Of a stretch of DNA of 24,110 bases, positions 1,053 to 4,541 are shown piece by piece. This stretch comes from a virus (taxonomy: Duplodnaviria; Heunggongvirae; Uroviricota; Caudoviricetes): the IMG/VR virus record IMGVR_UViG_2534681831_000037. One strand, 5' to 3'. The translations under genes and the position numbers were made by a program. The notes beneath the pieces were generated by a model. It saw only the letters and a program-made list of their open reading frames with translations. It searched no databases and was not told where the DNA came from. The stretch's first letter is position 1. Every line of letters starts with the position of its first letter.

Positions 1053-1236
1053 TATTCCTCCCGGCCGGGATAGTGTATTAAATCAGATATGGAGTGGGCT
1101 GTAGTCCGGAAGCCTGAATGACACACGGGGACTACAGCCCAAGAAATGAAAAAAGGCCACGCAGTTGCGCAGCCTGATAAACCCTGGTTAAAATCCACAC
1201 GATAACAACACAACAATATCAGTATCTCATGCTATT

Positions 1237-1261
1237 GCCCGAACCCATTCGGGCATTTTTT
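1237..1261 (+). terminator. Rho-independent terminator-like hairpin (GCCCGAA-CCCA-TTCGGGC followed by T6)
   Basis: 7-bp perfect stem at 1237-1254 followed by A + TTTTTT on the + strand. Confidence 0.4.
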
Positions 1262-1266
1262 ACCCA

Positions 1267-1291
1267 TAAAAAAGACCCCTCCGGAGAGGGG
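1267..1291 (-). terminator. Rho-independent terminator downstream of the tRNA cluster
   Basis: 6-bp GC-rich stem CCCCTC/GAGGGG (1276-1291) with a 4-nt loop; the A6 run at 1268-1273 gives a U-run after the hairpin on the minus strand. Confidence 0.55.
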
Positions 1292-1563
1292 CATGTTTGC
1301 ATGCACATTCTTTTTCTTGCATGGTGCCGGGTGCCTCCCGGTGAATTCAGTATCAGCACCTGAATCCGCGATTATCACATATACCTGGTTGCTGATTGCC
1401 CCTCCGCACAGGGGGATTCACCATGCGAAATTTTTTAACAAACGCTCAGCATGTCAGGCAACATTCAACTGCCTGAATTGTGAGGCATTTAACATTTCAC
1501 TGTCCGGTGTCTTTCCTGTAATAAAAAGCCCGCAAAAGAGAGTCAGGGCAGATAAGTGTGGTG

Positions 1564-1640
1564 TGGCGCGTTGTACTGGATTCGGACCAGTGACCGATTG
1601 CTTAGAAGGCAATTGCTCTGTCCGGCTGAGCTAACAACGC
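1564..1640 (-). tRNA. tRNA-Arg (anticodon TCT), 77 nt, CCA encoded
   Basis: Reverse complement folds as a cloverleaf: acceptor GCGTTGT/ACAACGC, D-stem GCTC/GAGC, anticodon stem ATTGC/GCAAT with loop CTTCTAA, T-stem ACTGG/CCAGT, 3' GCCA. T-loop reads TCCGAAT (C at position 55). Confidence 0.8.
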
Positions 1641-1653
1641 TGAATACCGATAA

Positions 1654-1730
1654 TGGACCGCCATCGGGGACCCGAACCCCGCGCAACCAGCTTCGAAGGC
1701 TGGCGCTCTGTCCTGATGAGCTAATGGCGG
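1654..1730 (-). tRNA. tRNA-Arg (anticodon TCG), 77 nt, CCA encoded
   Basis: Cloverleaf: acceptor CCGCCAT/ATGGCGG, D-stem GCTC/GAGC, anticodon stem CCAGC/GCTGG with loop CTTCGAA, T-stem CGGGG/CCCCG with loop TTCGGGT, discriminator T, CCA. Confidence 0.7.
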
Positions 1731-1739
1731 TATGTGATA

Positions 1740-1815
1740 TGGTGGCCCTTGCTGGATTTGAACCAGCGACCTGGCGATTATGAGTCGCTCGCTCTCACCA
1801 CTGAGCTAAAGGGCC
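1740..1815 (-). tRNA. tRNA with CAT anticodon, most likely tRNA-Ile2 (lysidine type, ileX/ileZ-like) rather than Met; 76 nt
   Basis: Reverse complement GGCCCTTTAGCTCAGTGGTGAGAGCGAGCGACTCATAATCGCCAGGTCGCTGGTTCAAATCCAGCAAGGGCCACCA closely resembles E. coli ileX from memory; anticodon loop CTCATAA. Confidence 0.8.
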
Positions 1816-1843
1816 GAGCCAAAAAATAATAATCAGATGAAAA

Positions 1844-2558
1844 TCAATAATCAAGCCCTTGCCTGGATACATATCTGTCTGGCGGGAAGCCATAATAGCG
1901 GTGAAATACAGAAATAAAGTAGGACCTGCTTGAATAACCGCATTTTTCTGCTATAGCCTGTCCATATCCATGCCGGGAACATAACATATTTACAGCAACA
2001 CGCATCCGCTCTTCCAGCAACAAGCGACTGAACATCGCCCCCTTCATTTTTCAGTTTTGTCTTTAACAAACTCTCACTCATATGCAACTGTAGAGCAATC
2101 GCACCAAGCGTCCAGCTTGCTGATATATCTGTCTGAATTATCGCCCTGACTTTGGCACTTATGCTGGATAAACATCCACTTAAAAACAATGACATCCGTT
2201 CATCTGTTTCAAACAGAGACAGGCAGGCCATCATAAGAAACATATCCGTGGCCTCTCCGGAAAATCCCTGGCTGGTAATTAAAGCCGCAGCCAACGCAGG
2301 ATTGTTGGGTTCCAGCAACAGGTAAAGCGGAATGTCAGTCAGACGAGTCCTCGTCAGCTTATGCTGACTTTCCAGATATTGACTTACGACGGATTCGCTT
2401 ATATCGACAATTTTAACTTTGCCATAATGCATAAGGAAAAGCTCCCTGATGCATTTGGTGGCCAGAACAACTGAGCCTGGCTTAAGTGACAACGTATCCT
2501 TTTCAAGAAAAATATTAATTGGGGAGCAAACCATGATAACTGAACAGACAACAGCCAT
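1844..2558 (-). pseudogene. AraC-family transcriptional regulator (AppY/EnvY/GadX-like), frameshifted inside the HTH domain
   Basis: ORF 1851-2558 carries the first AraC HTH (WTLGAIALQLHMSESLLKTKLKNEG) then runs out of frame. The overlapping ORF 1844-2047 in another frame carries the second HTH (RMRVAVNMLCSRHGYGQAIAEKCGYSSRSYFISVFHRYYGFPP). The two frames meet at a C5 run at 2038-2042. Confidence 0.6.
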
Positions 2559-2680
2559 TATAATTTTACTTTCATTAGCAATTGGTTAGCTCAATTATAG
2601 CCCCAAAAGGTAAATTATCATCAACACATAAGCAAAGGACTGACAGGTGTCGCCCCCCACCAGCCGCCCATTCACCACAA

Positions 2681-2705
2681 ATAAAAAGCCTTCAGGACTG
2701 AAGGC
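2681..2705 (-). terminator. Rho-independent terminator overlapping the stop of the 65-aa gene
   Basis: Perfect 8-bp stem GCCTTCAG/CTGAAGGC (2688-2705) with a 2-nt loop; the A-run at 2682-2687 gives a U-run on the minus strand. Confidence 0.5.
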
Positions 2706-2889
2706 GTCTGTAACAACCGCACTGATAGTCTGCCAGACCCGCCATAACAAGCTGGGTCAGTATTAACTGGCAGCGTTCGCGTGAAAGGTAAGTATTCTGC
2801 GCAATCTCCCCGACTGTCGCCGGTTCGGTGACGCTTAATTCATTAAACACTGCCCTGGCGGTTTCGGTCATATCCTGCTGTTTCAGCAT
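2692..2889 (-). CDS. Small (65 aa) putative winged-helix DNA-binding protein
   Basis: ATG-initiated ORF with an upstream purine-rich SD-like stretch; TVGEIAQNTYLSRERCQLILTQLVMAGL resembles a wHTH recognition helix. Own terminator downstream. Function unknown. Confidence 0.45.
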   Translation of the reverse strand: MLKQQDMTETARAVFNELSVTEPATVGEIAQNTYLSRERCQLILTQLVMAGLADYQCGCYRRLQS

Positions 2890-3011
2890 GTCTTTTCCCT
2901 TTTCCGGTTAACGTGACATACCAATAACTCTTGTCGAAAAAGCCAGCAAGCTGAAAGAACGGTATTAATAACCACCAGCGAATTTATTGCGCTGCTGTAT
3001 ATTACGGACAC

Positions 3012-3032
3012 AAAAAAACCACCTTCCGGTGG
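3012..3032 (-). terminator. Rho-independent terminator downstream of the ORF6N-type gene
   Basis: Stem CCACC/GGTGG (3019-3032) with loop TTCC; the A7 run at 3012-3018 gives a U7 tail on the minus strand. Confidence 0.6.
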
Positions 3033-3131
3033 CTTCCTTGTGCGAAAAAAACTTGCGTTTCGCCTCGCGATACAGCTTTGCGAAGCATACAGGAATTGAA
3101 GCAGTTTATGTGCAAAAATGCAAGAACTTTT

Positions 3132-3713
3132 TTAAAGCTGCATCAACCTTTCCACCAGTTTATCTCTGCGAACAACAAACCAACCATTGGCTCTCGCCAG
3201 TTCCAGCCATGACTCAAGGGAAATAACAATATCATCATCCCGTAACTGAATTGTGGAAACAGTGACACCGCCTCTCTGATAACAGAGAACTCGCGTGTCG
3301 TAACTTTTCTGGCATGAAACTGGCGCTGACGGATCCTTTTGTCTGAAATAGCAGTCTTCCAGCTTTTCGAACACATCCCACGCCTGATCGGTTTCCAGCA
3401 TTTTGGCATGACGGGCTGCTCCGCGTTCTGTCCAGAGGATGAGGGAGCGGGCTTTCGGGGAAATTTGTAACCCTCTTAAAGATGGTTGCAAATTTTGTGA
3501 GTAGTTTAAAGCTACCCGCAAATTTTTCAGGGCATCGCCAGCCACTTTGAAAAAATGCTTTCCTTCAATAAAGCGCTCAGCATTTCTGGCGTAGTTATTT
3601 TGAATGTTCTTAACTCCAGCACCGTACAACTGCGCCAAAAGTTCGGTGGTAATAACAGGAATCTGGTTATGGGTGATCGGGGAGAGAGTTTCAACAGAAA
3701 TTTGAGTTGTCAT
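3132..3713 (-). CDS. Phage regulatory/antirepressor-like protein (ORF6N/Rha-type N-terminal domain), 193 aa
   Basis: ATG at 3713 with GAGGG SD. N-terminal ITHNQIPVITTELLAQLYGAGVKNIQNNYARNAERFIEGKHFFKV resembles the ORF6N antirepressor domain. First gene after the late promoter. Confidence 0.45.
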   Translation of the reverse strand: MTTQISVETLSPITHNQIPVITTELLAQLYGAGVKNIQNNYARNAERFIEGKHFFKVAGDALKNLRVALNYSQNLQPSLRGLQISPKARSLILWTERGAARHAKMLETDQAWDVFEKLEDCYFRQKDPSAPVSCQKSYDTRVLCYQRGGVTVSTIQLRDDDIVISLESWLELARANGWFVVRRDKLVERLMQL

Positions 3714-3876
3714 AATGACGCCCTCTGGTGGTTTCTAAACCATCACCACCGTCAGGTTCCTAATCATCGGGTGGTGAGACGTACAGGGTTAGGAACTACC
3801 GGGAAACCAACCGGCGAGCTTTTCAGCTCCCCCATACGCCCCACCATAATTCAGATGTGCGCGTGCATACGACAAT

Positions 3877-3897
3877 AAAAAACACGCTCGCGGCGTG
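3877..3897 (-). terminator. tR'-like terminator just downstream of the late promoter
   Basis: On the minus strand, hairpin CACGC-CGCGA-GCGTG followed by TTTTTT (plus-strand A-run 3877-3882), about 60 nt after the predicted late transcription start. Confidence 0.5.
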
Positions 3898-3960
3898 TGT
3901 CTGTCGCGGTCTCTATCCGGGGTTCCTAATCCCGACGCCAGATTTTGCTGGCGCGTGAGG

Positions 3961-3990
3961 AATATAGCCCCGGATAACAGATTGAGTCAA
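3961..3990 (-). promoter_or_regulatory. Late promoter pR'-like (-35 TTGACT, 18-bp spacer, -10 TATATT) with adjacent qut-like hairpin
   Basis: Minus strand: TTGACT (3985-3990, overlapping the Q stop) and TATATT (3961-3966). Hairpin GCCAG-ATTTTG-CTGGC in the first ~30 transcribed nt. Position immediately after Q matches lambdoid late-promoter layout. Confidence 0.5.
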
Positions 3991-4541
3991 CAGACAGTTT
4001 TTAAATACCCGGAAGAGAATGCATCACGCATCGGCAGATAGAGCATATATTCAGCAAGATTTAGCCATACATCTACCCGACTGCAGCACGTCCGAAAACA
4101 CCACTCAGGGTGTGCATCATTTAGCAATTCAGCCATTTTGCGCTTACTCATCCCCCGCCCTTCATATCTTTGCCGGAGGATACAAATCAATCCTGGGTGT
4201 TCTGCCAGCACTTCACTAATCACCCGATCAATGCATAACGCCTCTGCATCAGTACAATGCACCAGCCAGCTTTTTTGCTTGCCGTTGATCATATCCCGCA
4301 AAAAAGCCTCAAGTTCAGGTTTGTCCAGACCTGCTTTTTTCATCCTCCGGAGCGCCTCATTAATTGCCGTTTTTGTTAGCTTTTTAGAGGTCAGCAACTG
4401 GTTAAACATATTTCCCGTCTTACCGCCGCCAATATACGACCAGCGCCCCCACATACGTAGTTTTCCCTGAATCCAGACACTTTCCAGCGTGGTGAGACGA
4501 AGGTGTTCCCCGCTTTTGCCTGTATTTGTTGGGTAAATCAT
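3987..4541 (-). CDS. Late antiterminator Q (Q82/QuuD-like family), 184 aa from the internal ATG
   Basis: The 268-aa track ORF is over-extended. ATG at 4541 has SD AGGAAGG and overlaps the upstream stop (ATGA). Motifs LRMWGRW and HCTDAEALCIDRVISEV resemble the QuuD-type Q family from memory. Followed by a promoter plus terminator. Confidence 0.65.
   Translation of the reverse strand: MIYPTNTGKSGEHLRLTTLESVWIQGKLRMWGRWSYIGGGKTGNMFNQLLTSKKLTKTAINEALRRMKKAGLDKPELEAFLRDMINGKQKSWLVHCTDAEALCIDRVISEVLAEHPGLICILRQRYEGRGMSKRKMAELLNDAHPEWCFRTCCSRVDVWLNLAEYMLYLPMRDAFSSGYLKTVC

Follow-up and report, generated by a model that had tools for sequence, protein, structure and literature searches.

The stretch analysed here (the window) is the 24,110-nucleotide tailed-phage record IMGVR_UViG_2534681831_000037, in which the forward direction of the phage corresponds to the minus strand. 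Positions 1–4541, read on that strand, very probably constitute the late-regulatory segment, with accessory ("moron") genes, of a lambdoid prophage that carries no Shiga toxin (Stx) genes and belongs to an Escherichia coli of the enterohaemorrhagic or enteropathogenic (EHEC/EPEC) type; the segment is built from mosaic modules, and its cargo-less junction is an allele shared with other prophages. In the order in which they would be transcribed, the modules are a Q-like gene with a promoter and an isrK-like RNA, an ORF6N gene, TrmB-like and AraC-like genes, three tRNA genes, a cargo slot, a pair of small RNA (sRNA) genes and a nanS-p-type esterase gene (Table 1), and the lysis genes come after nanS-p, outside the window. 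This Stx-phage-type late module without stx is real, ordinary and already described. Its organization, including convergent sRNA genes between a moron coding sequence and a conserved open reading frame (ORF), was published in 2014 (PMC4104026). A near-identical relative, referred to below as the twin, resides beside yebY in E. coli O111:H8 strain 8B (NZ_CP077473); this prophage shares 99.9% identity with window positions 1–4600.

Table 1 Features of the late region in window coordinates, listed from the esterase gene to the Q-like gene.
Feature	Position	Strand	Evidence and remarks
nanS-p-type sialate O-acetylesterase gene (SASA family), 5' part, runs off the window	1..1052	-	ORF 423-1052
Terminator-like hairpin upstream of esterase gene	1154..1175	-	9-bp stem, 6 GC pairs, T-run; conserved in 933W and BP-4795
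AgvB anti-sRNA gene (GcvB sponge family)	1200..1261	+	RF02702 96.5 bits, gathering 56; Rho-independent terminator
STnc100 (PasD-related) sRNA gene	1262..1454	- (late strand)	RF02076 146.7 bits, gathering 47, full length
STnc100 terminator	1275-1292	-	Terminator scan
Cargo slot, 39-bp filler	1484..1522	-	ATTACAGGAAAGACACCGGACAGTGAAATGTTAAATGCC; alignments with 933W, Stx2k and TerB relatives
Post-argO hairpin and T-run, left border of slot	1523..1563	-	GCCC...GGGCTTTTTAT; equals the "terminator upstream of the stx genes" of 933W
tRNA-Arg (TCT), argO type	1564..1640	-	ARAGORN
tRNA-Arg (TCG), argN type	1654..1730	-	ARAGORN
tRNA with CAT anticodon, ileZ type	1740..1815	-	ARAGORN; read as tRNA-Ile in the twin by the Prokaryotic Genome Annotation Pipeline (PGAP)
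Promoter-like site upstream of tRNA block	1826-1854	-	Consensus scan
AraC-type helix-turn-helix (HTH) regulator gene	1844..2558	-	ORFs 1851-2558 and 1844-2047 in the window; HTH_AraC and HTH_18 on the twin protein
Terminator-like hairpins at end of TrmB-like gene	2688-2705, 2638-2665	-	Terminator scan
TrmB-like small winged-helix protein, 65 amino acids	2692..2889	-	TrmB 19.1 bits, below cut-off; "TrmB family transcriptional regulator" in sources
ORF6N-domain protein in antirepressor (AnrP-like) position	3132..3713	-	ORF6N 69.1 bits; ORF6N domain-containing protein in relatives
C4-type antisense RNA element (P1 immI-like)	3767..3851	-	RF01695 67 bits, gathering 45, full-length 1-87
isrK-like short RNA	3877..3954	-	Rfam covariance model 69.4 bits, gathering 50, full-length
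Rho-independent terminator of isrK-like RNA	3882..3898	-	ACACGCCGCGAGCGTGT and T-run; the tR' of the first-pass annotation
c4-a1b1 target elements	3914..3967	-	Rfam 47.8 bits, gathering 46.7; overlaps isrK
Sigma-70 promoter-like site, candidate PR'/isrK promoter	3961..3990	-	TTGACT-18-TATATT, 10/12 consensus matches, directly after Q stop codon
Q-like late antiterminator gene (DUF1133 family)	3987..4541	-	Pfam matches; position as AntQ of Gifsy-1

The cargo slot and its borders

The position of the slot was delimited by alignment with prophages that carry cargo. In the Stx2 phage 933W (AF125520) the order is Q, pR', ileZ argN argO, stx2AB, STnc100/AsxR and L0105 (nanS-p). Alignment of the region from Q through the tRNA genes to nanS-p with this phage resulted in homology that extends from the tRNA side to window position 1523 and restarts on the esterase side at 1483, 46 bp past the stxB2 stop codon. 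The tRNA-side homology stops at 1523 also in the Stx2k phage phiSTEC1575 and in a TerB-carrying O157:H7 prophage. The esterase-side homology restarts at 1497 in the Stx1 phage BP-4795, 40 bp past the stxB1 stop codon, and at 1443 in TerB-type prophages. Because the homology borders fall at 1523 and 1483, the cargo point is assigned to the 39 bp at 1484–1522. At this point 933W carries 1,341 bp that include stx2AB (stx2a), phiSTEC1575 carries stx2k and iraM, and O157:H7 strain 7.1_Anguil and PPyecE_EH1910 carry TerB and DUF3927 genes.

Neither stxA nor stxB is present between the tRNA genes and the esterase gene of the window, where the 39 bp take the place of the 1,341-bp segment of 933W. The first-pass annotation had recognized an arrangement akin to that of Stx phage late regions from which the toxin genes are missing, and both statements hold; the region cannot be called unrelated to Stx phage late regions because its flanks are homologous to those of 933W, BP-4795 and the Stx2k phage. 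Its view of the whole 511-bp interval (1053–1563) as an empty toxin slot has to be revised, however, as ~430–445 bp outside the slot are a constant STnc100/anti-sRNA segment that occurs in Stx phages too, downstream of stxB. The accompanying remark on the absence of ORFs above ~25 codons does not hold mechanically, since ORFs of 44–113 amino acids overlap the interval. A Pfam search with five such ORFs and a sixth one on the plus strand gave no match at E <= 1 except a meaningless 14.5-bit match to DUF3054, and protein cargo in the interval was rejected for want of family support.

Protein features have been annotated over the sRNA locus (window ~1292–1435 on the plus strand; L003 6166–6309; L002 5112–5339). 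They include a PGAP pseudogene, "hypothetical protein, incomplete", antisense to STnc100 in both the twin and O157:H7 TR01, and ORF42 of BP-4795. These annotated proteins are probably spurious because the corresponding ORFs are without family support.

Comparison with 933W shows a common tRNA block, post-argO terminator hairpin, STnc100 gene with a convergent anti-sRNA, and nanS-p homologue. Apart from the cargo, 933W differs in that its anti-sRNA is AsxR rather than AgvB, its Q belongs to another family and adjoins the tRNA genes without intervening isrK, ORF6N, TrmB-like and AraC-like genes, and its esterase-side segment is just 71–76% identical to that of the window. The phage phiSTEC1575-Stx2k (OQ243220) resembles the window on the other side of the slot, sharing the TrmB-like gene, the AraC-type regulator and the tRNA trio with 91.5% identity over window 2995–1523, up to the breakpoint at 1523. 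It differs in its cargo, in the lack of nanS-p, in a weak STnc100 match (64.9 bits) and in its antiterminator gene.

A convergent pair of small RNA genes

The constant segment contains two sRNA genes on opposite strands, STnc100 ending at 1262 and AgvB at 1261, such that they abut tail to tail. The first-pass annotation had seen only terminator hairpins in this interval; these hairpins belong to the two sRNA genes. STnc100 scores above its gathering threshold and lies upstream of the sialate esterase gene, the location reported for this PasD-related RNA in a 2026 preprint (bioRxiv 10.64898/2026.05.13.724894). All seven relatives scanned have it, whatever their cargo. It follows stxB in both 933W and BP-4795, with scores of 207.7 and 190.7 bits, respectively, and is partnered there by AsxR or an AgvB-like RNA. 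According to a 2025 paper, STnc100 lies 75 nt past stx2, and an interaction between STnc100 and stxB was proposed there (PMC12370729).

The AgvB gene is identical to the family consensus at 62/62 positions, including the CACAACA motif in the 5' variable region that corresponds to the GcvB R1 target consensus. AsxR was considered in its stead and rejected, as the AsxR model yields 43 bits where its gathering score is 63. The pair separates the moron site from the conserved esterase ORF and lies 3' of the candidate PR' promoter. Tree et al. (2014) reported convergent sRNAs at the moron site, between the moron coding sequence and a conserved ORF; AgvB was located in Sp10/Sp17 and AsxR downstream of stx2B (PMC4104026). 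In strain Sakai AgvB (EcOnc01a/b) binds Hfq and is a sponge for the R1 seed of the core sRNA GcvB; it lifts the repression of DppA and promotes growth in mucus from the bovine rectum (PMC4104026).

The Sakai prophages Sp10/Sp17 (agvB1/agvB2, PMC4104026) offer a close parallel in layout, with a convergent sRNA pair between moron site and esterase ORF, a Q-dependent promoter on its 5' side and no stx. Their likeness to the window is drawn through other O157:H7 genomes and the text of that paper; the 161-nt junction is 100% identical in O157:H7 genomes and typically occurs twice per genome.

Pairing of the AgvB 5' end with R1 of K-12 GcvB was calculated in silico and gave a duplex of -19.4 kcal/mol, compared with -12.5 +/- 2.7 for shuffled sequences, 17/1000 of which were as good. 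The RNA at the AsxR position of 933W gave -10.5 with GcvB. The identity to the O157:H7 Sakai RNA and this predicted pairing suggest that AgvB acts as a sponge here as well. It would be transcribed from its own promoter against the late direction, and its CACAACA-bearing 5' end would pair with the R1 seed of GcvB and lift repression of targets such as dppA.

The anti-sRNA partner is not universal, because the prophage PPwrbA_EH2201 lacks an AgvB or AsxR match at gathering score: in this prophage (L009 4141–4346 and downstream) STnc100 is present and the adjacent AgvB/AsxR matches are all below gathering.

Reading frames, regulators and the Q-proximal cassette

The esterase gene was correctly placed by the first-pass annotation, with its start at 1052. 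The intact twin protein comprises DUF1737, SASA and DUF6645 domains, and the copy in the window is frameshifted by a 1-base deletion (a missing G) at 528 relative to the twin. NanS-p proteins occur in Stx and non-Stx prophages alike (PMC8065619), and they are reported to deacetylate Neu5,9Ac2 from mucin. The three tRNAs proposed earlier (Ile-CAU, Arg-UCG and Arg-UCU) are likewise borne out, by ARAGORN, by the PGAP reading of tRNA-Ile and by 91.6% identity of the block to ileZ-argN-argO of 933W, whose annotation ascribes to them the decoding of rare AUA/AGA/CGN codons.

The AraC-type regulator is an intact protein of 237 amino acids in the twin and in O157:H7 relatives. In the window it is split by a 1-base insertion (an extra G) at 2036. 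Its family and its position between Q and the tRNA genes recall, by analogy, the prophage-encoded regulators PsrA/PsrB/PatE, which in O157:H7 control type III secretion and acid resistance. These names were nonetheless dropped, as the cluster names are generic only ("helix-turn-helix domain-containing protein", "AraC family").

The two broken frames could be real pseudogenizations in a cryptic prophage, in which case the module would be a decaying, non-functional remnant. Both frames are indeed disrupted relative to the twin by changes of one base each, and many EHEC prophages are defective. However, the comparison of window 1–4600 with the twin shows five single-base indels (528, 1275, 1437, 2036 and 2659) and one substitution (941), all of them confined to 528–2659, a segment present in multiple copies. 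The segment from tRNA genes to esterase has 13 matching places in the twin's chromosome. The remaining 20,194 bases (window 3918–24110) differ from the same prophage by a single homopolymer indel, at 17200, as is typical when errors of assembly or polishing affect repeats. Moreover, the AraC-like gene and nanS-p are intact in all relatives examined, and the sRNA genes and tRNAs are unharmed save for an additional T in the terminator tail of STnc100. Because the differences are dominated by indels, are clustered in the multi-copy segment and are set in near-perfect identity elsewhere, the sequence comparison points to errors of assembly or polishing in repeated DNA. Decay of the module is accordingly considered doubtful.

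At the Q end of the module, the product of 3987–4541 matches DUF1133 with 354 bits and, marginally, Phage_antitermQ (PF06530), for which a 71-residue match scores 27.5 bits (cut-off 26). The twin annotation is DUF1133 family protein, and one source labels a member of the same cluster "phage antiterminator". The isrK match starts 7 nt downstream of the promoter-like site (3990->3961). The isrK, C4 and c4-a1b1 elements all score at or above gathering and are followed by the ORF6N gene, the composition of an antirepressor-control module in which the antirepressor role is putative. The exact ORF6N sequence is present on at least 1000 contigs. A similar arrangement of a Q-like gene, an isrK-type terminated RNA and an antirepressor-like gene is found in antQ-isrK-orf45-anrP of Gifsy-1 (PMC4825925), and P1 immI provides the c4 counterpart. 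Gifsy-1 differs by orf45, as the ORF list of the window contains no equivalent of at least 25 codons ending at the ORF6N start codon; the regulatory logic at the locus is read from sequence.

Part of the first-pass description of this end of the module stands: the Q-like ORF with its marginal Q match, the promoter-like site and the terminator (3898->3882) are in place. The tRNA genes do not directly follow tR', as had been stated; ~2.1 kb intervene and hold the c4-a1b1, isrK, C4, ORF6N, TrmB-like and AraC-type genes and elements.

The full-length isrK, C4 and c4-a1b1 matches ahead of an ORF6N gene also suit an arrangement in which the promoter and terminator after Q belong solely to an immunity cassette for antirepressor control and the true late promoter lies elsewhere, as the isrK promoter of Gifsy-1 drives isrK-orf45-anrP. 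This is judged unlikely. Late-promoter and isrK roles can coexist, and the site immediately follows the Q stop codon and precedes a short terminated RNA, as does PR' in lambdoid phages. Apart from the promoter-like site of the tRNA block, no other strong promoter-like site was found ahead of the lysis genes on the same strand, although a simple consensus scan is weak evidence either way.

In the proposed working model, Q-modified RNA polymerase would, upon induction, start at the promoter after Q and read through the terminators, as expected from the protein and RNA families present. Terminator-like sites number 12 in 1000–4100, compared with 3.8 +/- 2.1 expected. Read-through would then lead to expression of the tRNAs, of cargo where present, of the esterase and of the lysis genes. 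The tRNAs, sRNAs and regulators would form insulated units that may be expressed in the lysogen.

The genes racR, ydaT, kil, recT and ralR mark the early region as Rac-like. From the twin's annotation, the far end (~21300–24110) contains an integrase, an excisionase and chromosomal yebY and thus represents the left junction of the prophage, and at ~5000–7500 nin-like genes (DUF1367, YbcO-like) are preceded by genes for a Hok/Gef toxin and a KilA-N protein. The Q-isrK-ORF6N segment (window 3059–4600) is 90% identical at the nucleotide level over 1.5 kb to "Actinobacillus phage vB_Apl-pPE4" (PP818812; host given as Actinobacillus pleuropneumoniae). A match to a Pasteurellaceae phage is unexpected and may be due to host mis-assignment or contamination.

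Origin of the cargo-less junction

Of 5,426 complete E. coli genomes, 491 contain the uninterrupted junction (window 1440–1600); the median is two per genome and the total 776 places. These counts represent megablast coverage of at least 80% of a 161-nt probe and not inspected alignments. The filler at these places differs by 0–1 bases. Comparable probes for the argO-stx2A and argO-TerB-type junctions gave 592 and 784 genomes, respectively. In O157:H7 TR01 the cargo-less junction stands behind a different Q gene, of a 435-bp family, in a ybcN-rusA context. The same junction between argO and STnc100, with one mismatch in the filler, is present in PPwrbA_EH2201 (LC645427, at wrbA) and in the related phages phi296/phi315/phi367, TL-2011a and Lahn2. 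The first of these, which is stx-negative, differs from the window in having a 933W-like backbone, and it is 95–97% identical to 933W on both sides of the same two breakpoints. Since the same filler recurs at 776 places in 491 genomes, behind different Q modules and in a prophage with a 933W backbone, the cargo-less state is regarded as a shared allele and not as a private loss. It is very probably one of at least three common alleles (none, stx2, TerB with DUF3927) at a recombination hot spot, where homologous recombination in the conserved flanks would move the alleles from one prophage to another.

Several points weigh against the reading of 1–4541 as a late module with a shared cargo-less allele. 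The Q role of the DUF1133 protein leans, by analogy, on the marginal Pfam match and the position shared with AntQ of Gifsy-1; the expression of the module in the source strain is predicted from sequence; the frameshifts in the AraC-like gene and nanS-p, if real, would mean that part of the module is decaying; and the allele counts are coverage-based. In addition, the slot data fit insertion into an empty site or ancient loss alike, the allele being old relative to the divergence of its flanks and free of a scar.

The first of these two origins would make the 39-bp junction the ancestral state, an acceptor site that received the stx2 and TerB/DUF3927 cassettes in independent insertions, a proposal held to be quite improbable at present.

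The search for a deletion scar, suggested by the first-pass annotation, detected none. By eye the filler faintly resembles the ribosome-binding site and start of stxA2 (AAAAGGAACACCTGTATATGAAGTGT), with possible AAGTGTA microhomology to the sequence after stxB2. Local-alignment permutation tests against the stx2, stx1, stx2k and TerB cassettes showed chance-level similarity (284/500 shuffles scored as well against the left end of the 933W cassette), and a scar is therefore not detectable. That the window derives from a former Stx phage which recently lost stxAB by local deletion is thus highly improbable: both flanks are homologous to Stx phages up to 40–46 bp from the stx genes and the filler bears that faint resemblance to stxA2, but the resemblance is at chance, the near-invariant filler is too widespread behind different Q modules and in a 933W-backbone prophage, and the Rac-like early region and DUF1133-type Q are unlike those of 933W or Stx1 phages.

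As a discovery, the cargo-less late module carries little weight, as the layout of tRNAs, moron slot, convergent sRNAs and nanS-p, including AgvB, is documented for Stx and non-Stx lambdoid prophages. Its value is for annotation: the seemingly "empty" intergenic stretch in such prophages codes for sRNAs, and the cargo point is pinned to a 39-bp interval with sharp borders common to stx2a, stx2k and TerB-type cassettes. The three slot alleles are similarly frequent in complete E. coli genomes. If the acceptor-site proposal were true, the argO terminator and the 5' end of STnc100 would delimit a defined integration or recombination hot spot, and the cargo-less junction would show concretely what the locus looked like before Stx2 phages arose.

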